A DNA stretch of 64,000 nucleotides, taken from contig CM119373.1 in assembly GCA_051294905.1 (NCBI GenBank), positions 5,644,001-5,708,000 of the forward strand, given 5' to 3'. Origin of the DNA: Botryllus schlosseri (Eukaryota). How positions within the stretch are numbered: position 1 is the stretch's first letter; every line of letters begins with the position of its first letter. The position numbers and the translations under genes were made by a program. Shown here one piece after another: positions 6,827 through 61,600 of the stretch. Below the pieces are notes generated by a model that had not been told where the DNA came from, did no database searches, and was given only the letters and a program-made list of their open reading frames with translations.

Positions 6827-7829
6827 AAAATATGAAGACACTGGACTTGTTTTGCTATGAAGCACCGTCTTCTCTTGACTATGACCTACTGCCCGAATCC
6901 TATCCGAATTCAATATATTAAAGTGCATTCATGATCAAATGCTTTTCAGTATTACTTCTCGAAAAAGCTGTCGCAAAAGTTGAGGAATCTCAGACAAAAG
7001 ACAAAGGCATCTGGTACGTCTTCATGGAGAGCGCATGCTTTGTGTCTAGGCTCATCAGGTGATTGGATGATTGTTATTCGTTTTTTTATTATTTATAAGT
7101 TTCATTTTATTCAAAAGGTCACCCTAATATAACGATTGAAGACGCCAGGGTGCAGTTGGAAACAGAGTTCAATAGACCTGGTGCCAATTGGCCGAATGTC
7201 ATCACTCTCATGAAGTTCACTCATCACGACAGACGCAATCAGTTGAAGGTGCTAGAATTTGGTGGCGTTGCTGAAATTTTGAAGAGCTTTCCAATGCTGC
7301 AAGATATTAGACTGGTGAGGTCTTTCATTCTTTACAGATGACTTCAATTTGCAGTCATAACTTCGAAAATCAGTAAATTGAAATTGTTTGTGTGCCTCGG
7401 CAAAATAAGCAATTATATTGCATATTTATCTTCCTATTGCATTAGCATACACTATTTTCCCATTACATGACATGCTTACAGTGTACACTATACCAGGCTT
7501 GGACAACTAAAAAAATTTTAGCTCTTCCAAATTGCAGCGCCATAGCTGAAAAGTTGGTCGTGCTGTTGCACGAGGCGGATATTTTTGTTAGCTCACTACG
7601 AAACAACATGGTCAATTAGGCAGAATGAACGCCTCTAAACCCTTGGAATATTTCATTAATGTGTGCTGTGTTCTCGGTTATTTATAACCGAATATGTACT
7701 CGTTAACGTTTGTATTGTATCGTTACTACCGTATGTTGCCCGTCTACTAGTTGTTTGTTTTTGTCATTATTACATTTTAGACACAAAATAATTCTTACAT
7801 TTCGAATTTGATCCACCCTATCACTGACG

Positions 7830-7869
7830 TTCGCTACTGATGAGGGTCAGTCGAAAAGCTTTTAGCGAA
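7830..7869 (+). ncRNA. Minimal type I hammerhead ribozyme motif (Penelope-like)
   Basis: ttcgcta-CTGATGA-g ggtcagt c-GAAA-agcttt-tagcgaa: 7-bp stem I, intact core, palindromic stem III (aaaagctttt), followed by aataaa. Confidence 0.75.
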
Positions 7870-9128
7870 TAAATAAACAATATGAAGTTATTGTTTCGCG
7901 TTATTCTGAATAACTAGGCTATGTGTTTTAAAATGAATAATATGGATGAATTTACTTACTCTAGGTAACCTGTTTAAGTGATGTGCATATTCATGACTAA
8001 CAGCTCTGAGTAACGCATTGTTATTTTCAATAGATCAGACATGAGTTTCAACTGCTTGTTGATAGAAGTGTTGAAGAAATGCATGAGAAGTGCATGGAAA
8101 TGCTTCTCACTCTTGATAAAGTTTTTGGAAATCAGACTGATCAAGAGGTTGGTATCATGCTTGATAATTAACAGTGCTACAGTCATAGGCACTGACTTTT
8201 ATTTTTGCATGGGGTGGCGGCAGGCGCGTAACCAGGTGGTGTCGAAATCCCTCTTTTTGAAACGCAAAACCACGATCTTTTAAAATGGCCATTCTGACTC
8301 TAATATTCAGTTGTAATTCAAGAAGTCGTATTATCAGTGTTACGCGGGGCCGCGACCATTTAGCGAGATTCGTCTGGTCACGCCTATCGCATCGCACAAT
8401 GCTACGCAATGCGATTTCCCGCTGAAATATTTTATACGCGGCTTGCGTTCCTCACCGATGCAAATAATGCACTTTAATTTGTAGAAGGTATATTTGCTCG
8501 TCAAATCGCAATAAGAGATGGTTTTCTCGGAGCGCGCGATGAAATCTACGTTTCTAACGACGAAGTCGAATTTGTACATCAAATAAGGATCGTAAGTTTG
8601 GTGAAATCAGCATAGAATGTTGCTGCTCAAACTAATCGAATAAATTCAGAATTTGCGCCATCGAGAATCTTGTGTTGCATCAATTTTTGACAACGTAATT
8701 CAACGCCGTGTACTGCACAATGCGCAGTACTAATAACAAATCAAACACTGACAAGTGACACGGACGGAATACGAGTGTATAAAGCAGACAAGAATTAGTA
8801 GTCTTCAGATGATAGCAAACGAGATAGCGCGCATTTAACCAATAATTCCACAACTTGCGTACAGTGCTAATGCCCAAACTTGCCTTTATCTAAAATGGAA
8901 TGTGATGGATGGAATGGAAACTTTTGAATTGCAGGAATGTCCCTCACCTGTGCCTATTATGACTCTAATTGTTTGCAGGGAAATGAAGACGATGAAATTC
9001 ATATCCTGCTCGAACTCCAGAAGGCTCTCACAGACAAGAAAATAGAGTCGAACCATGGTTTGAGTGCAATATGTCTTTGTCAGGTAAGATTTGCTACCTG
9101 TCTAGTATGGATCTGCTTCAGTTTAGAT

Positions 9129-9928: not shown

Positions 9929-10685
9929 TTTTAGATATACATAAAAGTTCTATTAATAAAATCTTTCAATATGATCGAAATTCTTGAGCCGTCCTAAAAC
10001 GAAGGTATATTATGCTATGCTAAACACTGCGCTCGACGTAATGGAGCTGCAGAATTTCGTACTAAGACCAACTGACGTGGCTGCGAGTCATCAATTCTTA
10101 ACCCTTTGCGAAAATATAGAAGTCACAACGAGTAAAGCGATGGTGAAGTTAACGCACCATAAATGTCGCAATGGGTTAAGAAACGCGGAAGCTCGAGCGT
10201 AACGGGTCTTATGCAAAGTTCTTTCAATTTATATGTTTGTCATATTTTGGAATCGGGAGAGGATTTTCACACTAACAGTACTGGAGTTGCCAAAAAGGAA
10301 GACATTTAGGCGTCCTAGGACGACAATTTGAAAAACCTGAAAAAGGAGGACAAATCCTCCTAAAGCAGTTCGTATGTTAACCATAATTGAATTGCAGCAC
10401 CATTACGGTGGCTTTCTGAACACGATGTCCATGGCAAATTTTTTTTCAACCTGCGAGTTAATTTGGGACCTCATAATTTTTATAGCGCAAAGCCCCTTTA
10501 AGAATAAGCAGCTAACAAGTTATGATCGAACGAGGTCCGAGGTTCATTGGTACCCCTGAAGATTCTGATGATGTAGAGAAATTTATGCATCTGAACACAA
10601 TTGGTGCATAAATTAATGCTTCAATTAATAATCGAATAATATAATAACTTATTATAAATTTGCCCTTTGGAGCTAAGCTTGTTAA

Positions 10686-11127
10686 CGGTGCACTGCACTC
10701 TAAAAACTATGTGGTCTCAAAGTGAAGGGCGAAACGAGAAAATTATTTAGGCCACAGCCATTTTCTTCAGAACGCCACCGTAATGGAGCTCCAATTTATT
10801 GAATTTTCCACAGGGGAATCATGCTCCAGCAGTCACGCAGAAATCGAACTTCATATAGTTGTCTTCTGTAGTTGATTGAACATCTTCCGTTGCACGCGGT
10901 GTTTAAACGACCTTTGCTTGTATGACATATTTCCTTCATAACATCGGCTGACAACGATATAAAGTTCGATTTCTGTGTGACTGCTGGAGCATGATTCCCC
11001 TGTAAAAAATTCAATAAATTGCAGCTCCTTTACGGTGGCATTGTGAAGAATATGGCTGTGGCCTAAAACTTTCTCTCGTTTCGCCCTTCAATTTGAGACG
11101 ACATGATTTTTAGAGAACAGTGCCCCT
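10686..11127. mobile_element. Foldback MITE with TTAA TSD (Kolobok-like)
   Basis: ~180-bp inverted arms. TTAA at 10682-10685 and 11128-11131. Right terminus reads aggggcactg in rc. Confidence 0.8.
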
Positions 11128-11176
11128 TTAAACTATTCGCCGATTCAACTACATTTATATCTTAAGTATGAGAAAC

Positions 11177-11675: not shown

Positions 11676-12515
11676 CATTATAAGAAGTCTCAAATAAGCA
11701 TTTCTAGCTGAAGTTGGTCATGTGCTCTGGATTCGCACATGAACATTTAGCAATATCATTTAAAGCTAACATATTGTTTTAATTCCAGGCACATACAGTC
11801 GATTTAACGACTTTAAAGTTGACACCTCCACATCTTTTGATTGCACGTCATGAGAATGGAGATGAACAGTCGTGGATTGCGGCCAATCGCATCACCATCA
11901 AGCGCAGATCCGAAAACGAAAGAAGACCGTTTGAGATGATTATTGATCTCGTAGCATGCTATTCCGCATGGGATCTTAGTTATCCCAAGGTCTTTTAAAT
12001 ATTGCCATTCATTCAACGTGTCCTTGTTGGTGATAAAAATTCAGGATTCCAGTCGAACAAGTTCGTTAATTTTTGGAAAAAATATCAGAATGCCCAGCAA
12101 TCGATTGAAAAAATGTAGGCTAATTAATCTCCCTTGCTCCAAGTACTTGGACTGTGAGTAGTGCTTTCTTTTGGTATGGACTGTACCTGTACATAGTGGA
12201 TTTCGTTATTTTTTGCATTTGCACAATAATTCGTTTTTTTTTAGTGGCTAGACTTTTGCTATGCCTTCATTAGTAAATTTTTCGTTTCTAGTGGCACTGT
12301 TTATTAGGGCTGTTCCAAAATAACATACTGTTTAGCCAAAATTGGTTTACTATGGCATTTTGGCAATTCAATCAATCATTTGATCATGAAACCAGACAAT
12401 TTTTGAGAAACAATATTTATTGACAACATTGCTGTACAGTGTACATACACCTTGCTTTAGTTCCGAATCCAGTTCTTTTATACTGTTATTACTGTTAAAT
12501 AGTATATTCTTATCG

Positions 12516-12985
12516 GAATGAACCCGAATATTTTCGGTCGACACTCGTCAGCAAATCTAGTAGAGAATTGGAAAGAACGTTGTATATCAACAATCGTATC
12601 ACAAAATATGATGTCAGCAGCATGAAATTTCGAGAGAGCATTCAATCCAATATTCCCAGGTGGTACACGAACTCCTGTTGACAGAGTTTCGGTTGGTGTA
12701 TTTTATATCTTATCAAAATACACCATTCGAAACTCTGTCAACAGAAGTTTGTGCACCACCTGCATGGGAATAGTGCATTAAACGCTCACTCTCGCGAAAT
12801 TTCATGCTGGTGAAGGCCTATTTTGTGATACGATTGTTGATATACAATGTTATTTCCAATTCTCCACTAGTTGCTGACGATTACCTCTGACGAGTGTCAT
12901 CCGAAAATGATTGGGTTCATTTCAACATGCACAGCACATACTATTCAGTTGTGTATTGCAGTTCTGTACCTGCAAGAATCTCTGT
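12516..12985. repeat. Palindromic repeat with hammerhead cores at both outer ends (inverted Penelope pLTR-like)
   Basis: Arms ~12516-12705 and ~12714-12923. CTGACGA-gtgtcatcc-GAAA at 12887-12906 (+) and its mirror at ~12521-12551 (-). A ~60-bp tail is present on the right only. Confidence 0.75.
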
Positions 12986-13389
12986 TATTACTGTATAAAA
13001 TCCTGTCTTACTGTGTCAAAAAATTGTTATGTTTTCAATTTGTATTGTCATATTTAACGGCAACTTACACTGTTTCTTTTATTGTACATTCCACAACCGA
13101 TTCTTTCAAAATAAAATATTGTTTCGAGAAGAGCCTGTGGATCCACAGTGTGGAGGTATTTCAGGTACATAATTTCGAGCTCTGCAGCGATAGGTACAGA
13201 CATGCCACTTCAGACCACACAATATTATGACATACATCGCTACCACGCAATGTGGCATCTAAAAAAAAAATCGATTATTGTGTGTTTTTTTTGTGCATAA
13301 ATGCACGCGTTTTAGCTTACAGTGTATATTGTCCTAAAGATCTGTTCTGACTCGTGTCGTTATTTTTACCTTATTTTCAGTGCTCAGAA

Positions 13390-19824: not shown

Positions 19825-20873
19825 CAGTGGTTCTCACACTTTTTAGCTGCGCGGACCCCCCAAGTTTTAGTTGAAATTTAACTCTATTACACAGGTCTAC
19901 ACGATTTTCGCGCCAGGACTTCTTTTGGTCAATTGTACATAATTTAGTGGCACTGAATACGGATCTGACGTTATTTTTGTTCCATCACGTCACGTTTTTG
20001 AAATATCATATATGTTGAATATTTCTACTTTTTCGGGGTATTCAAGTAAATTTTGGCTACTTGCAGTAGCCTACTTACTGAAGTGGAAATGTTTTACAAC
20101 TACTTCAGCATCTACCTGAACAGTATTCGGGAGGAACTAATTACTCATGCAATTTGGTTTTTATAAAGTGGAAAGTAGTTCAGGGATAATATATTGCACC
20201 ACCATCATTAGTTAAATTGTCATGAGAAACACGTAAAATAGCCTCTGAATCACGATAACTGAGTATATTTGTTCGAAGATTCTACCCATGCGTGGTGTTA
20301 CTATAGTCAAGTTTTATGCGCTAATTTTTTTTTCAAATTTGTAGACCAGTGTTATCGTGCAACCATCATCTGTCCTATGCAAATATTAACTGTAGACTAG
20401 TGATAAACAGAATCCAAATGACCTTTCTTGAAATTACCATCATACTTACCGTTGCATTTAAAACAAAAATCAATTCAAAACAAACATTTTTTACCCCTGA
20501 CGAGTGTCAGCCGAAAATATTCGGGGTTCATTTCAATATGAATATACTACTCAATTGTATACTGAAGCTGTGTACCTCCACGAAGCTCTTCAGATTTTAC
20601 AACTGAAAGAAAAACATCTCTTAACAACAATTTGTTTGTATCAGTAGGCTATTGGAAATTTGACAATTAAAATGAGTTTACACAGTAGGCAATTTCATCT
20701 CAGACTGCCATTCTGTTTATGTGAGTCCTTGAGTTTTAGCAATTATGAAGCGAAACTGCTTCGCGAATTCTCTAATCAAAATAACAGAAATTAGGTTATC
20801 GCACATTTTTCAAATTTTGAGGTTTCGCGGAAATCCTGAAATTGCTCTGTGTAACCTCGGTTGGGAACCACTG
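19825..20873. mobile_element. hAT-Buster-type MITE nested in 19509-21369
   Basis: TIRs cagtggttctc / rc cagtggttccc. Degenerate TSD cactaagg/caccatag. Confidence 0.7.
20493..20527 (+). ncRNA. Minimal type I hammerhead motif (12516 family)
   Basis: ccc-CTGACGA-g tgtcagc c-GAAA-atat-TC-ggg, with palindromic AATATT stem III and UUC triplet. The downstream tail to ~20595 is shared with other copies. Confidence 0.65.
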
Positions 20874-24946: not shown

Positions 24947-25454
24947 CTTCAAATAAAGGAAAGAGAGAGAGACCAATATATTTGCACAAAAGTATCGCTA
25001 AATATCATATATCCATCATCTGCGTGGTCCATGCAAGCACTTTCAGGCCGCATATATAGTCAGTCGCCCATGTGGCAGTTTCATCACAGTAGATGCAGGC
25101 TAACAAAACGACCCACCCTATCTTCATTTGCCTTCTAGTCGTATCAAGCAGTATTGGAGTATCCGATACAATTTGTCGCACACTGTCCTAATATAATTAC
25201 TGGTCTTGTGATACAGAGGGCACCATACCGTCATATTTCCTGAAAGAGGTATTGGGGTAAAAAGGTTAAGACATACTGTTTTATACCTAAGCTATCATTT
25301 CTGTTACATGATGCTGTCCAATTATCATGCTGTTGAAAACGGAATTTATAGCAACACACACCCAGCCCTCTGCGCCGACCGCATATGTCAATTTCCAGGT
25401 GTTGACGGCCCACGACAGCGTTTCTATAACTGCTCCTAAATAATACTTAGTTAC

Positions 25455-25705
25455 TTGAAGAGCTTCTTGGAGGTACAGAACTTCAATATACAATTCGAAT
25501 TCAGATTTCAATATCAATATTCATATTGAAATAAGTCCGAATATTTTCGGCTGACACTCGTCAAGGGTAATCGTCAGCAACTAGTAGAGAATTGGAAAGA
25601 ACATTGTATATCCACAATCGTATCACAAATATGACGTCACCAGCATGAAAAACAGATCGTTCAATCTACAATTTTTATGTGGTACAAGAACTCCTTTTGT
25701 TGACT
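25455..25705 (-). repeat. Further copy of the hammerhead-bearing repeat (core mutated to TTGACGA)
   Basis: rc attaccc-ttgacgag-tgtcagcc-gaaaatattcgg plus arm and tail homology to 12714-12985. Confidence 0.75.
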
Positions 25706-25736
25706 CGAACTCTGTTTTAATACTTAACGTATACGC

Positions 25737-49775: not shown

Positions 49776-50361
49776 ATCCAAACCAACTCGATTTTGACCA
49801 AATTTTGACTTAACGTATGCATATTAGGTATTTTCCCACATAATGATAAAATTGTACCACTTATCTTCATTTCTGGTTCGAACTGGCTGTCTTAAGGAAG
49901 TAGTTTGGCCTGGAAAAGCGTTTTTGGCTGAGAAACAGGCAACTTTTTACACGAAAAAAAGCAAGAAATATTTGAAAAAATTAGTAGTACAACGAGAGAT
50001 ACTTTCCTACATTCTTGGATTGAAAGTGCAAGTCCTTACTAAGAAACTTGTCAAACTTGCTTCATTCTGACAATGTTGTCTACATCAGTGGTTCTCAACC
50101 GCCGGTCCGCGGACCGGCACCGGTCCGCGGCGACATTCTTGCCGGTCCGCGAGACATATTTCAATTTTATATCCTAATCGCAAGATGCAAGGTGATGAAA
50201 CAATAACTTCATAGCATTAACTTATTTAGCAAATGCCTTTCAACTGACTCACATCAGTAGCCAACGTCTCGAATACGGGGAATCAATTTCGATAGGCTTG
50301 TAGTATATCCTGTGTAACGTAGTGATGAAAATACAACTGCAAAACAGCGAGGTGTGGTAAT

Positions 50362-53107
50362 AGGCCTTTTGCAGGACTTCGATCACGTGACTAGATACGC
50401 ATAGCAACAACAAATTGGTTAGCAAGCTACTTTCTCGCGCACCTGCTTCAGTGCTAAATATCGCATAGTGTACTGTTGATTTCTGGTTGTAAACGTTTCG
50501 GAAATTTGTTGTAGAAGTCATCAGAGATTTACCTATGCTAGATGTCAATCCTGTACAAAGCACATAGAATGATATCGTCAGAATTACGCAGAAATCCGTC
50601 GTTAACGTAGCCGTATTTCGGATACAGTATATTATTGTTTTCGGGCTGTAAACGTCCGCAAGTGTCATGGAGATGCGCAAGGATTCAAATATATTGGATG
50701 TCTTTGATTCATGAACTATGTAAACTCCTTGCGTCAAAATGATCGACATTGTAGCCGTTATTTGGTAGTCAACTATGATTTTATGACACAAAATTCGACA
50801 TTGCAGGACATTGACTGCGTGATATTTATTCCAGCATTAAGTTAGGTGTGGATAGTATACTATAGTTGTATTGTAGCGGTAGTTGGTAATCATTGCAGCA
50901 TTTTGATGATTGATATCGATTGCAATATAGGATACTGCTATTTTTAAGCCTAAGAGACAATGACTGCCAGTGCCAGTACGTTGATGTGTTATGAATTCAT
51001 GCAATGTGCTACATACCATATATATATTAAATATCCTAAGCTATTGTATGACTTCTCAGTTAAACAATTCAAAATGTTTAGACCTCTACACCTATATTAC
51101 AAGTTATTGATCATTCTGTCATGCTGCCAAGTGCCACTACCCGAAGGAAAATGATCATCAGCTCCAATTGAGGGTGAAACAAACTGTCCCGGGGCCTGGA
51201 TTACTTGATTGATTGCCTGGATTGGATTACTTCACTCTATGGCACAGTGCAAATATCTTGAGTTTCAAGACATATGGCTATACCACATGCATACGGAATA
51301 ATGATCTGATGGATTATCCCAAGAGAGCCGAACATAGGCAACTAAGAAATTGATGATGCCCTCGTCAAGAATTCAACCTGGAGCCAATTATTATCACCAC
51401 ATAAAATTTGGTTATGCGGTGGAAGGCAGCGTGGTTTCATGCCAACAGAAAATGTCAGCAGATGATCTGACCACTGACTAACTGTCCTGAACTTCTTTCC
51501 CGATGTTGATGTCTGCTTTGAAAATGATATTTCATTTGTGTACAGCAAGACAAGCGCTCTTCCGTGGATGCTATGAATATGTCTAGACAAGTGGCTATGG
51601 AGGTAGAGGAAAATACATAGGCATAACAGTCTCGGCAGTTATTGAACTTGATAAGGTTAACATCCATTTTTCTTCAACTATTTCTTATGCTCTGAGTATC
51701 GAATGCACAAAAATTAATAAATCGATCTTCTTTGCAAGTTTATTTGTAAATTCAATGAATCAAAGAATATCATAAGTTCAGAATATTACGGAGTCAATGC
51801 GAAAGAAACAATGTTAGTCGTCTTTAGAGGATGTTTCTGAGTTGGATGAGCCAATACACAGAGGGGGTCAGCAACGAAGTACTATTTTACCTGAGTACTA
51901 GCGTCATTATGAGTTTAGGCTACTTCCACTTCTACTTGACACTTTTTAGGTAGTACTTTTTTGTCAGGTTTGGGATTTTGTCAACTAGAAAGTAGCTTTG
52001 GCGCATGATCGCATCCCCTTCAAGCGTGAGGTTGTCATAACAACTGGGCAAAATAGCCCCAGTACCACGGTAACTAAATTAATTTTTGAAAATTGCACTC
52101 ATTTGTGGTGTCATCACCCTTTTGCGTTGATCAAGAAGATGCAACATGCAATGTTTACAGTTGTCACATGGCATCAATTTCTAAAACTAAGTGACCCTCA
52201 ACCAAATCTACTTCATGTAACGAATTTCTTGACCGCTTTTCAGAAATTCATTTCTACTTCCACTTGAAGTACTGTCCTGGAAGTAATTAGTGCTACTTGT
52301 ACTGGAGTATAAATTATAAGGCATTGCTTCTACTCGGTTCCCAACAATGACCACGTTGACCACGTCTGGGTATAGGATGACCGATCTTGTCACTGCGTTT
52401 GAGCTGCTCTAAGAGTTATATGATAGTTACTTCCATTAGTTCGCTAAATATCGCACATATGTGACATCAAATATTTATCAAAATCGAGTGTGATTTGCCA
52501 AATCCACTTCAATCGCAGTTGCGAAGTAGTGGTAATAAAATTGGCATTGTATAAGGCAACAATAAAGTGCACTGATTTGCTTAGTCTTGACGGCAGGTTC
52601 TCCCAAAAGATACTTCCGATGTGTTCAGCGACATTTGTTTTATAGCAGCACCCCAGCACCCAAACCAGCAGACAGTATATCCTGATCCTGGCGGGTCCCG
52701 GCTGCTTCGGCCATATCTTCCATCCAAAATCAGGCTCCACAACAGACAAATAGTACTGCTTGAACTAACAAATACTCTTACCAGAATATAAGCCAATCGC
52801 TTTACTTCAAATGCATAAATTTAAGTACATATAATCAGAGTTGAGTACCGTAATACGACTACGTTACCGATGGATTTCTGCGTAATTCAGACGATATCAT
52901 TCGAAATGCTTTGTACATGATTGACATCTAGCATAGGTGAATCTCTGATGACTTCTACAACAAATTTCCGAAACGTTTACAACCAGAAATCAACAGTACA
53001 CTATGCGATATTTAGCACTGAAGCAGGTGCGCGAGAAAGTAGCTTGCTAACCAATTTGTTGTTGCTATGCGTATCTAGTCACGTGATCGAAGTCCTGCAA
53101 AAGGCCT
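50362..53107. mobile_element. Long-TIR element nested in the Buster transposon (ISL2EU/Harbinger-like candidate)
   Basis: ~260-bp inverted repeats (50362-50622, 52846-53107) starting aggccttttgcagg, flanked by AT on both sides (TA with gg termini also possible). Confidence 0.75.
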
Positions 53108-53634
53108 ATTGTCAATTCCGTCTTGGGAGTCAGTATGACAACACAATTGCCACAGAAGCGATAGTTCCGGTCAGATGTCATATTACTACACAGCACATAG
53201 CAATCACAACAAATCTTTAATATCGAGGTCTTGGTCGCTTCGCATAGCGTTTCGCATTTCCATCATTACTTGCGTTCGAGCAATGTCTTGGTGCTAATTT
53301 CTCACCTGAGCAGCAGTATAGAAAAGAAATAAATTGCTTATTTCTAATTTGCGCAAGTCACCAGCTAGTTTAGGCGTTTACATGCCTAGCGGAATTCAGG
53401 GTAACTGCATACCCAAAACCTTGTCTGGGTATGCGCGGTATACGTAGCCTACCTGCGTCCGGCGTCAATGATCACAACACATGCTGCTGGTACAGATATG
53501 AATTGTTGTGTACAAACAATTGTTTGAGCTGTAAGTGTCGAACTTCCAAGACCAGTTGTATTTGAAGGGTAAGAAGACTTTGAGCAAAATGTAACGAAAT
53601 TTGACCGTTCAATTTAGTGAATATTGACATTATT

Positions 53635-55557
53635 ATGGAGTGTAGCAAACATAAATGTATTGAGCATTTCTTTCGAGCGAAGGCCAGCAATCAGATTGAC
53701 GTTAAAGCGTCTACCAGCACAGAGGAAGGATGTACTTCAGATTTACCACCTAGCGTGAAGCGGTCGGGCAATGCTTATATGGCTTACCCAGAAAGCAAGA
53801 AGCGAAAAGTTGACTTCACAAGGCAGTACGATAGTAAGTACTTAGAGCTCGGATTTGCTATTGCTCCAAGCAGTGAAAAAGCACCACTTCCCATGTGCTT
53901 GGTTTGTAACAAAATACTTTCAAACGACGCCATGAAGCCTTCAAAGCTTACTCGACATTTTCACTCACTGCATGCCGACCTCGTTGGGAAGCCTGTTTCT
54001 TATTTTAAAAGGCTACTGTACAAAGTTGAAAATGAAAGAATTGATTTACAAAAGATGACAGCTACTGATAAACATCTTCTCAGATCATCTTATATAATTG
54101 CCCTCCTAATTAGCAAAGCGAAAAAGCCTTTTACTATTGGAGAAGATTTAATAAAACCATGCCTGTTAGCAGCTGCGAAAGAGGTTTTGGGTCCGGAACT
54201 AGCTAACAAACTTAAAGCCATACCACTATCAAATGATTCAATTCAAAGGAGAATATTGGATATGGCAGTTGATGTGGAACAACAAGTTATTGAGCAAGTA
54301 AACAATTCGAAATATTTTGCTATACAACTTGACGAATCTACGGATTTGAGTAATTGTGCAATACTTGCTTGCTTTGTTCGATATGAATATGAAGGTAGTA
54401 TCATTGACGAATTTCTTTGTTCCCTGCAACTACCTGGACGAACGACCAGTTCAGAATTATTTCGATCTCTCGATACTTATGTCCAAGAACAAGGTTTGTA
54501 TTGGGAAAGATGCGTCGGTGTTTGTACTGACGGTACTGCGAAAATTAAAAAAGTGGCAAACACGGATCTGCTCGTTACACATTGCATTCTTCACAGGGAA
54601 AATTTATGTGCCTAAAAAATGTCTCCTGAATTGACCGAAGTTCTGAACGGCGCAGTGAGAATTATAAATTATATACGTGGCCGAGCATTGCATTCAAGGC
54701 TTTTTGAGGCTTTGTGTGATAGCCTGGGAGCGCAACATCAACATCTTTTACTTCATGCAGAAGTAAGGCGGCTCTCGAGAGGACGTGTTCTCACTCGACT
54801 ATTTGAGTTGAGGGAGGAAGTCAAGCAGTTTCTGTTGGAGAGAAATTCTCCAATAAAAGAACTCCTATCAGATGAGATGTGGATCGCAAAGCTTGCGTAT
54901 TTAGCAGACATATTCAGCCGCATGAATGACCTGAATAAGTCGTTGCAAGGAAATCACACCAACATATTTACGCTGCGTAACAAAACCGATGCCTTCAAAC
55001 GCAAACTGATGTTTTGGAAGAGCAATGTTGAAAAAGATGATATTGATATGTTTCCCTCTTTGGAAGACGCCGTTTCCAATGCTTCTGTAGACACACAGGA
55101 GTTATTTGCTATCATACGTCAACACTTAGAGCAGGTACAGGTCAGTTTTGACAAATATTTTCCAGAAAGTGTAGACCCGCGAAAGGGAAATTACTGGATT
55201 GTTAATCCCTTTACAACCGACATTAATGAGTGTAATCTTAACAATATTGAGAAAGAATCGCTAATTGAGCTTTCCTGTGATGCCACCCTGATGTCTAAGT
55301 ATAAAGACGAGCCATTGTCACAGTTTTGGATATCACTGAAAAATGAATATCCCGCGCTCAGTGATAAAGCTATGAAATTACTGCTGACTTTTTGCACAAC
55401 ATACCTATCCGAAAAAAGCTTTTCATCATTATCCCTCATCAAGACCAAACAGAGAAATCGTGTGGATGTCGCTGCTGTACTTCGCCTAGCAGAAACTTCA
55501 ATTGAACCACGTATAACACGAATAATATCGAAGAGACAGGAACAAATTGCTCATTAA
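53635..55557 (+). pseudogene. Buster-type hAT transposase (ZBED5/ZBED8/SCAND3-like family) with a nonsense codon
   Basis: BED finger CLVC...MKPSKLTRH, KKPFTIGE, QLDEST, CTDG, HCILHRE, LSRG, TTYLSEKSFS..IKTK.RNR. In-frame TAA at 54613-54615 joins the two listed ORFs. Short deletion after CTDG. Confidence 0.92.
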
Positions 55558-58661: not shown

Positions 58662-61600
58662 TCAAATATCATCTTCATCACAGTCATCACTCCAATCGTG
58701 CTTCACCGGACCATGTATTCTGGAATTGTGTCGATCGAACGTAATCGTCGCGTCACTTTGACAGCCGCACACGCCAGATGTGTATATATCACTGATTTCT
58801 GACGCAGTCAAAGTCCTGTCCCATACTTCAAATCTCTCTATGTCACCCTGGAAACCTTCATCGCTGTACGATTGTTCACCGGGATTTGATCCACTGATTG
58901 GGCCATATTGACCATGACCCAGTATCAGAACGCCATTTCCTGGCAATATGTTGGAGTCGTCTGTTGCTCTCGTTGCCAGAGTTTCGCCGTCAATGTAATA
59001 AATGTGCTTAGTTTCGCTTCTCACAATGCAAAAATGTGTTCGATTCGTAATAGGGAAAATACTGAAGGTACGATACTTTTTCCCATTGAAATGCACGGTC
59101 AAAGTCATAAAAGGATCACTGAAGGATATCTTAAGAGTCAAGCACGGGTCTGATATCGAAATACTCGTTGATGCGCAGTAAGAGAACAATGTTCCGGACA
59201 CTTTGAAAAGTCCCTTCAACGGTCGAATCCAGGCGCATCCACTGAATGATATCATTTCGGAAATATTACCTTGATATTGAATGTAGCTGGAGTGGTGTGT
59301 TCCAGGGAATGAAAAGCGAGAAATGTTACATCCTGAATGAAATATGATGCCAAATGTTATTTTCAGAGATCTATATTTGTGATGTCGCGATTCAATAAGC
59401 CAAATTAATCTACTACCAAAAAAATTATGGCAACATTATGAAGGATGGATAAGTCAACTACAGCCAACTCCGATTAATTACGATATCGAGTACCTTGATA
59501 ACAGCTTCTTTGTTACACCAGGACCGGAACAGAAGTAAAAATTGCACGTAAAAAATCCGGTTGATTCGGACAATTCTCCGTTTAATTCGGATGCGGTCTC
59601 GCAATTCATATCATTAGGTAATGGCGCATTAAAAAGTACTTAGTTCCGTTAACCACAAGATGAGTAACTATAGTGAAACAATTACGACTCCTGCAATAAC
59701 AATCGACAATGAACTTGTACAAGGTCGTGCCAGCTTCATATGGTATAATTGCGTACATCTTGTAGAAACAGATTGACACAGAAAAGTTTAGCAAGAATGT
59801 GTAATTCCTCGCCAAAATAAAAACAAAAAGTTGTAAAGACGCCTCCATGACAGTTTGGCAGTAAGATGCGTTGGTATTATTCGAACCCTATATGCGTGTG
59901 TTAGACAGCAGTACTGTATACAGCTCTGTTTCTCAAACATTCTTCCATCGCGTATCAGTAATTTGCTTTTTACCACACGGCGTACCACTAACTTGTTTTT
60001 CACTACACATGGCGTACCACTTGAATTATACTTATACCACCTGAAATACGTATGTTACATGAGTAAAACGGTGCTCATTTGTTATTCCTGTTTAGTACTA
60101 TACCACAATACGAATGGACAGCATTGAAGCGCCATTTAGGGAGATATTCTAAACAGTTTCTTATGCAGGAGCTCGTAAATCTAGGGTCGCATGCGGCCCG
60201 CATCACCGTTTTGTGCGGCCCTCGAAAGGCTCAAGAAACGTATTAAAAATATTGATAAAATGAGTACTAAGTATCTAATTACTGCAGGGACTCGATTAAA
60301 CTTTTTCTTATTACATTTCAATACGATAATGATATGTTATATTCTTACTATATACATTATATTTTTATTTCATTGCTAGCGCGATAGCCCGACCTAGAGG
60401 CCAGGCATTCTAAAAGGTTTCAACTGGTAAACATCGAAGAAAGTCAAAATGGGAATGACTTACGGATCACGAGTGTAATTGTACATTAACCATCCAGCAA
60501 GTTTATTAATTTTAGTACAAGCTGTAGGCTACTTGAAAAATCCGATTCGCGCGTGTCTTAAGTAGATTCATTCTCTGTATGTGCTGAAGTATTTATATTT
60601 ATAAAATATATGTATGTTAGTGACAGAAGATTTGAAGCTAACATTGTCATGACGCTGTCAGCATTGTGTGTCCAAGAGTTGAACCAAAAATAGAATCATA
60701 AAATCTATAAACAGATCACTCCTCACAGATTCAAATCTCCATCCTGGTACTAAAATTCGGGAGAACCGACTTTTTTGAAAATTGGTTATTGATGTTGGCC
60801 AGCATCTGAAATCTCGCCAATGTTTCTGTCGCGTGTAGGATATCATCGAATCAATGGTTGGTTGGTTTTAAGTAAACATAGATGTTATTTCCACATCCCC
60901 AATATATACCCAAATACCGATATTGTTTTCTCGTTTATAATCCCAATTTTATATAGTGCCGCCCGCGAATGGATCAAGATGTGGAATGCGGCCCGCGAGC
61001 TAAAATGTTTGCCCATCCCTGATCTAGGATATGACATTACTCACGGCAATCTTCACGTATCACCTGAAGAGCTCTTCACCACCACAGTTTGAGAATCACT
61101 GGTATACAGTATTTGTGGAAAAATTTGATATTGAAAATAATGTACTATAGCACTAACCTAAAGTTATGCTCTGTAGCTAACGTACATTATATGCGATCCG
61201 TCCCAATTATGCAGTATACCGTGACTGCAATTAATTCATCACGCGGCAGTACCAAGTTTTAAATGCGACGTGTGCCTACTGCCTTTACGTACGACCACGT
61301 GGCGAACAATGGATTCTGCGTTTAGCCCGAACAAGGCCGCTTATCCGCTTAACTCCGAAACAGTGAGCGGAACAAAACTGTTCGAAGTAGGCGGAGTCGA
61401 CTGTATTAAAATTATCAAAAATTTAGTAGGATGCCTTTCATGCAGATGCATTTATGGGAGTTATGGAGATTAGTTATGTTTGGGTAGACTTTCGTAAAAC
61501 TTTTATGAAGGGTCAATAAGTCATTTATTTGTATTGTTCACAGTCATCACTGTTGCTTACGGGTTGCATAATTGTCAGGTCATTGTAATTACTGTTCCTA

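Follow-up and report, generated by a model that had tools for sequence, protein, structure and literature searches.

Insertions of Penelope-like elements (PLEs) are described as an inverted, 5′-truncated copy beside a one-sided tail of 30–40 bp (Arkhipova et al. 2013, PMC3846280; Craig et al. 2021, PMC8557442), and the same tail length is given by Frangieh et al. 2024 (PMC11167929). For rotifer PLEs, fold-back has been argued from the palindromes at the junctions, with an antisense template invoked (PMC3846280). In the Anolis element PAc (Poseidon), AT-rich DNA is nicked on both strands, two internal start sites of reverse transcription bound the tail, and the hammerhead ribozyme is protein-assisted and dispensable for insertion in vitro (PMC11167929). 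Pairs of minimal hammerheads on opposite strands, 100–700 bp apart, were stated by Cervera and De la Pena 2014 (PMC4209133). An active hammerhead with a 1-bp stem II and a 6-bp pseudoknot has been shown as well, the pseudoknot rescuing the short stem (Perreault et al. 2011, PMC3088659). The origin of the inverted arm is still an open matter in the literature examined.

The palindrome described here lies in a 64,000-nucleotide stretch of Botryllus schlosseri DNA (the window). Between the two copies of a target-site duplication (TSD) come an inverted arm that lacks a tail, then the junction, then a direct arm that ends in a tail (Table 1). It is, in our opinion, very probably a single, old and heavily 5′-truncated insertion of an endonuclease-positive (EN+) PLE, now dead. 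What is new is this insertion; the layout of head-to-head pLTR, tail and TSD is already in print. With the EN+ PLE units of Arkhipova et al. 2013 (PMC3846280) and Craig et al. 2021 (PMC8557442) the locus shares the head-to-head copy with a palindrome at the junction, a tail of 30–40 bp at one end, a TSD near 10 bp, and a pLTR plus tail holding the first ~20 codons. It differs from them in that the arms are cut to ~210–275 bp with no internal ORF between, and in a TSD of 11–13 bp as against the 8–10 bp of rotifer PLEs (PMC3846280, PMC8557442). The likeness to PAc takes in the AT-rich target, what would be two internal starts of reverse transcription bounding the tail, and a hammerhead beside the ORF start; however, the start codon of PAc lies at stem II, while the ATG here lies ~20 nt past the core, and the tail of PAc reaches ~110 nt or more into the ORF, compared with ~codons 6–18 here (PMC11167929).

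Table 1. Positions in the window of the palindromic insertion, its parts and other PLE copies
Feature	Position	Strand	Remarks
TSD, left copy	12483–12495	+	13 bp; longest string common to both flank windows
TSD, right copy	12982–12994	+	Direct repeat of the left copy
Left arm	12496–12707	−	Inverted 5′-truncated copy of the PLE 3′ end, without tail
Palindrome centre (head-to-head junction), unpaired	12705–12714	.	10 nt between arms; from folding
Right arm	12711–12983	+	Direct 5′-truncated copy of the PLE 3′ end, with tail
Tail, right arm only	12948–12983	+	34–36 bp; from arm and copy alignments
Last ~21 codons and stop of PLE frame	12642–12707	−	C-terminal LCxQKEFVY-type motif; stop at 12644–12642
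End of PLE frame, frameshifted downstream	12712–12762	+	C-terminal profile rank 3/4266 tiles, E 0.71
First ~18 PLE codons, frameshifted by a small insertion	12927–12983	+	N-terminal profile rank 2, E 0.0034
Left hammerhead core and 1-bp stem II	12532–12551	−	13-nt deletion of stem I 5′ strand and pseudoknot partner; two loop II changes
Right hammerhead	12883–12916	+	Stem I 12883–12886 with 12913–12916; core and stem II 12887–12906
Pseudoknot partner of loop II (probable)	12873–12878	+	5/6 pairs left here, 6 in copy B
Copy C, solo family copy, with tail	20491–20592	+	5′-truncated just upstream of stem I
Copy B, solo family copy	25456–25717	−	ORF end, hammerhead (core C3 changed), tail
Second PLE family, 5′-truncated copy	7618–7914	+	ORF end, UTR, hammerhead, ORF start
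Second family, degenerate second copy of hammerhead end	50197–50317	−	Stops after ~5 codons

A sequence-only reading of this DNA had recognised a palindrome of ~400 bp with a hammerhead core at each outer end. The palindrome and its two cores stand; the cores, however, lie 36 and 77 bp inside the ends, and the arms are longer than that reading gave, the left one continuing to ~12496 and the right one to 12981–12983, for an element of 12496–12983. Aligned with each other, the arms (12517–12707 and 12711–12921) are identical in 170 of 189 columns, and the region folds at −255 kcal/mol (z-score −21), a stability equalled by none of 100 shuffles. Contigs with zero differences span the centre in all three contig runs (X1, X5 and X6), so the palindrome is not an assembly artefact; in X1 and X6 such contigs also span the right junction. 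Together with the RNA run X24, these make up the four runs used of the 24 listed. Among the 15 joints shown of 288, none skips the whole element as an empty site would. The arms now differ by 10–14%, which indicates that the insertion is old.

The two ends are asymmetric. The 3′ ends of the right arm, copy B and copy C all fall within 3 bp of one point, 12981–12983. The left arm aligns to copy C out to 12500, with loose contig ends at 12498, and in contigs and reads other copies of the family run past 12498 into the extra (tail) sequence of the right arm. This one-sided tail leaves the right arm 34–36 bp longer at its 3′ end. The TSD adjoins both ends, and a common string of 13 bp is reached by 5 of 9057 control pairs of 61-nt windows. 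Its length is 11 bp if two bases common with the element end are assigned to the element, and 13 bp otherwise. TSD lengths vary in this AT-rich DNA, from 11–13 bp here to a 9-bp candidate at copy B, with none clear at copy C; the 9-bp direct repeat at copy B (25441–25449 and 25718–25726) is 6 bp off at one end and may be its TSD. By eye, the target site as reconstructed would have an AT-rich inverted repeat of 8 bp on either side of the duplicated bases (12476–12500, 12982–13000), which could be chance.

The second line of evidence comes from reading-frame remnants. Judged by its sequence, each arm consists, in this order, of the end of an RT + GIY-YIG ORF, a short UTR in which a minimal type I hammerhead lies, and the first ORF codons. 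The description of the element as non-coding is thereby not supported, both ends of the PLE ORF having left remnants in each arm, while the link to PLEs that had been proposed from the hammerheads is supported by the ORF ends, the tail and the TSD. For the C-terminus, 4266 six-frame tiles were scanned with a profile of 33 PLE C-termini that included no C-terminal sequence from the window. The left arm came first (E 0.0033); the right arm, at rank 3 (E 0.71), and copy B, at rank 5 (E 1.6), were not significant singly; ranks 2 and 4 were unrelated tiles.

For the N-terminus, the ATG past the core opens an 18-residue peptide. A second family of the window (7837) has this peptide too, again following a hammerhead of this type. 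The core pattern has 34 matches in metagenomes, of which 8, animal-like, carry the peptide and the other 26 do not. The N-terminal profile, built from 20 PLE N-termini, is partly circular, since window peptides had seeded the search. Searching with it retrieves PLE proteins: 35 out of 118 candidates and, in the representative library, 156, of which 150 are among the matches listed. The scorable peptide matches (157 of 163) leave the frame just past ~codon 18, where the right arm ends, in 152 cases and continue as a PLE N-terminus in 5. One of the continuing N-termini, P0037, has a DKG motif; among 1529 candidates it has 45 longer relatives, for the most part RT proteins, and many of them are 800–865 residues long with a C-terminal GIY-YIG motif. 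A domain scan of seven relatives gave RT in all seven and a GIY-YIG match in four, one above the curated cut-off. DKG and CxC...H...H are invariant in 24 of 24 aligned relatives, which describes the relatives and not this family itself, and a CX2-5CxxC linker finger was not seen by eye in the relative P0180. By these motifs, the relatives appear to fit Penelope/Poseidon as defined in PMC8557442. Protein searches returned no full-length protein with this family's own N- or C-terminus, and a tblastn search with 45 PLE proteins did not detect an internal PLE ORF within the 64-kb window (best E 0.013). P0064, considered as an autonomous partner of the family, was rejected, being another truncated copy.

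Long inverted arms with a TSD are also what a DNA-transposon derivative would offer, that is, a MITE or foldback with a hammerhead-like string in its arms by chance, and the window contains many other inverted repeats as well as a hAT transposase. We give this origin practically no credence: the tail makes the ends asymmetric, the arms are PLE ORF ends, and stem I is paired by a different, unrelated sequence in each of four families. Moreover, a 4-bp stem I and a palindromic stem III occur together in none of 39 prokaryote matches to the core pattern. The symmetric, fixed-end terminal inverted repeats of a MITE or foldback are likewise at odds with the tail, the variable centres and the solo copies.

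The family as a whole is a very abundant repeat. At 80% likeness, the element is matched by 12486 of 4934541 contigs in X1, 13297 of 3825060 in X5 and 1431 of 1425967 in X6, and the hammerhead region has a summed depth several hundred-fold that of the flanks, a ratio that is not a copy number. Depth peaks over ~140 bp around the hammerhead and drops more than tenfold toward the centre, with loose ends at 12633; truncation and subfamily divergence cannot be separated as sources of this fall. Joints were called at 80% likeness with 21–31 letters on the short side. Twelve of the 15 shown (of 288) link an antisense arm to a sense arm, at breakpoints 19–64 nt upstream of the cores, and their breakpoint pairs are all different; three opposite-strand joints were excluded. 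We read the 12 as other head-to-head copies, each with its own centre. At its 5′ end (25699–25717), copy B by eye opens with a short inverted piece of the element, like a miniature fold-back, and locus L013, from another animal, carries an inverted 3′-end piece at its 5′ end.

The sequence-only reading had taken the palindrome for a ribozyme-tipped foldback element and had pointed to retrozymes. Variable centres among the copies and the existence of solo copies speak against a separate element type of this kind; a retrozyme is not supported either, the window having no tandem units, only dispersed copies and one head-to-head pair. Non-LTR retrozymes (bioRxiv 10.64898/2026.07.22.740005) are alike in their type I hammerhead and PLE pLTR origin, but they are head-to-tail tandems, in contrast to the head-to-head pair with ORF remnants, tail and TSD found here.

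An explanation close to that reading is a non-autonomous, ribozyme-tipped foldback transcribed and mobilised as a palindromic unit, in the manner of a PLE-dependent SINE or a retrozyme. The abundance of the family, most of it short, and the recurrence of head-to-head copies would suit such a unit. Nevertheless, centres differ in 12 of 12 joints, copies B and C are solo, the inner arms are an ORF end, the hairpin sequesters the ribozyme, and tandem units are absent from the window; for these reasons we hold the palindromic unit to be very improbable. Short source loci may nevertheless feed part of the family.

The truncated PLE insertion thus remains the preferred reading, and with it the hammerheads become parts of a pLTR. 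Both cores of the form CTGACGA-N9-GAAA reported earlier are present (12551–12532, − strand; 12887–12906, + strand), as are the four family cores in the window, the others being at 20497 (+) and 25564 (−, first core base changed). The pattern CTGANGA-G-N7-C-GAAA, picked after the data were seen, occurs four times in the window against 0.015 expected per 64 kb (200 Markov resamples). The consensus previously deduced (stem I of 4 bp, stem II of 1 bp, palindromic stem III) corresponds to the majority sequence of family contigs and reads; the palindromic stem III holds for that majority and fails in the right copy. This majority sequence has an intact core, G10.1-C11.1, A15.1-U16.1, a base other than G at N17, stem I and the palindromic stem III. 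Metazoan PLE hammerheads are alike in the 4-bp stem I, G10.1-C11.1 and palindromic stem III, and in occurring mostly as dispersed solo motifs and as opposite-strand pairs; in the consensus of Cervera and De la Pena, helix II is long and one more base stands between positions 9 and 10.1, as against the one-pair stem II and probable pseudoknot of this clade (PMC4209133).

None of the four window copies keeps every hammerhead feature, pseudoknot included. The left copy lost its stem I strand and the pseudoknot partner, by a deletion between two CTGACGA repeats that is confirmed here; in the right copy the stem III palindrome is broken and U replaces C at the cleavage position, 12912; copy B has a changed core; copy C is cut upstream. 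Contigs and reads show other letters at 12538–12539 of the left core and at 12886, 12900, 12909, 12910 and 12912 of the right hammerhead. From these changes, both hammerheads at this locus appear to have decayed. An Rfam search, as had been proposed, gave no hammerhead model at E up to 10 (12 matches); at the palindrome centre it gave miRNA-hairpin matches only, below gathering scores, which reflect a generic hairpin.

A hairpin transcript with a working hammerhead at its 3′ end, as first envisaged, is not borne out by folding: in the full hairpin the pair probability of stem I is 0.0 and the core is largely paired to the antisense arm, both copies moreover being mutated. Energy folding of seven isolated motifs as monomers and homodimers, by a method that ignores pseudoknots, gave the hammerhead fold in none of the seven monomers. 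The hammerhead would, in our opinion, be a passenger of the pLTR.

The 1-bp stem II is probably backed by a 6-bp pseudoknot. In all four families, loop II can pair with six bases that lie upstream of stem I, and five inner pairs are constant although the stems I differ wholly; only the outer pair covaries (G-C, A-U, U-A), and covariation does not exceed that of shuffles (78/500). The constancy of the pairs could be explained by common descent. Lunse, Weinberg and Breaker (2017) reportedly found PLE-linked variants with a short stem III, which may already show the pseudoknotted form. The hammerheads of Perreault et al. 2011 are alike in a one-pair stem II backed by a 6-bp pseudoknot, but the example tested there is type II and microbial, whereas this family is type I with a dimer-type stem III (PMC3088659).

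Loop II is also complementary to the core, and a two-state switch between an off hairpin and the pseudoknot might be imagined, an idea we consider unlikely. Isolated motifs fold into the off hairpin in five of seven cases. It should be noted that the pattern used to find two of the four families fixes loop II, and that the partner is lost in several copies of the metagenome family, which speaks against a switch. No two-state form appears in the literature examined, which did not cover Lunse et al. 2017 or the supplements of Cervera 2014.

Transcription bears on another possibility, namely that a PLE-derived palindrome has been kept by the host as a hairpin-RNA locus, giving small RNAs against the family, or as a regulatory hairpin. 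A 490-nt hairpin of this stability would presumably suit Dicer, PLE small RNAs have been reported in a rotifer (PMC3846280), and the centre is identical in contigs of all three contig runs. In RNA run X24, of which ~6% was read, 2056 of 12895792 reads match the family, but only 8 of the 2056 do so at 99% likeness or more. The matching reads are equal in both directions, 99% of them continue into other sequence, and inner-arm depth is similar to flank depth. Read starts and ends do not pile up in this cDNA run, a library type unsuited as a cleavage assay. Family transcripts come from elsewhere, and the transcription of this locus itself stays putative. These features of the one run count against a host hairpin, and the drift of the arms suggests that their pairing has not been tightly maintained; we regard host retention as very unlikely.

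For the preferred reading, a truncated PLE insertion, the following course can be proposed. Going by published PLE biochemistry, the GIY-YIG domain would nick AT-rich DNA on both strands, 11–13 bp apart. Reverse transcription would start internally on the RNA, within the first ORF codons, where two alternative sites would lie ~35 nt from each other; the stretch between them would be the tail, and one cDNA would start at the outer site. This cDNA would pass the hammerhead and halt ~20 codons into the upstream ORF end. The hammerhead of the parent element would probably cleave as a dimer with protein help.

The mirror arm could have arisen in two ways. We somewhat favour its formation at insertion, by the cDNA folding back on itself; a second cDNA, primed at the other nick and joined at the centre, is possible but a good deal less likely. 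The two truncation points lie at most ~10 nt apart, and the inner arms are nearer each other (78/88) than either is to copy B (47/59 and 48/62). These two observations favour a coupled process, short of proof.

The second family in the window has a well-formed hammerhead with its core at 7837–7856, an 8-bp stem I, a palindromic stem III, a 6-bp pseudoknot and U at the cleavage position. It matches both ends of the full-length protein P0180, the first 9 residues being identical and the C-terminus agreeing in 11 of 13. Two further arms of 263 bp, inverted and 96% complementary, lie 2.2 kb apart (50359–50621 and 52848–53110); each has an outward-facing CTGATGA...GAAA core, with no clear stems or TSD. 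The pair may be another of PLE type or a young inverted duplication.

Beyond the window, the family motif had no match in metagenome contigs. In viral contigs, general core patterns matched 0 and 11 times, without a convincing relative among them, and none of 57 candidates there was a PLE relative. The eight animal-like metagenome loci (L004, L008, L013, L026, L028, L029, L034 and L022) are stumps of ~115 bp, hammerhead plus ORF start, from related PLE families, and lie in animal contigs deposited as metagenome sequence; several sit behind host coding sequences, and no PLE ORF was found in the eight. Such stumps seed many spurious predicted proteins in public assemblies. In addition, 25 PLE loci in genome bins (L046–L070) are distant (25–56%) and have hammerheads with a long stem II and no loop-core complementarity; lying in prokaryote bins and matching animal-type PLE proteins, they are most likely eukaryotic contamination.

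Three other features of the window deserve mention. A palindrome at 10682–11131, with 182-bp arms that are 88% complementary, an 86-nt spacer and no strict hammerhead core found, is probably a MITE. A hAT-family transposase frame with one stop inside lies at 53605–55557 (+; Dimer_Tnp_hAT E 4.6e-7). An open frame with a LamG/pentraxin-like domain at 58662–59435 (−) is probably a host exon.

The locus itself, a dead retrotransposon stump, is of little weight; its value is that of a clean example. Palindromes of this kind can readily be mistaken for MITEs or hairpin genes, while a TSD, a one-sided tail and the two ORF ends are marks of origin by PLE insertion. The 18-residue ORF start is a handy tag that ties short hammerhead repeats of several animals to one PLE clade. 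Finally, the family is abundant and has many head-to-head copies; tabulating their centres, tail sides and TSDs across the genome could settle the origin of the inverted arm in PLE insertions.
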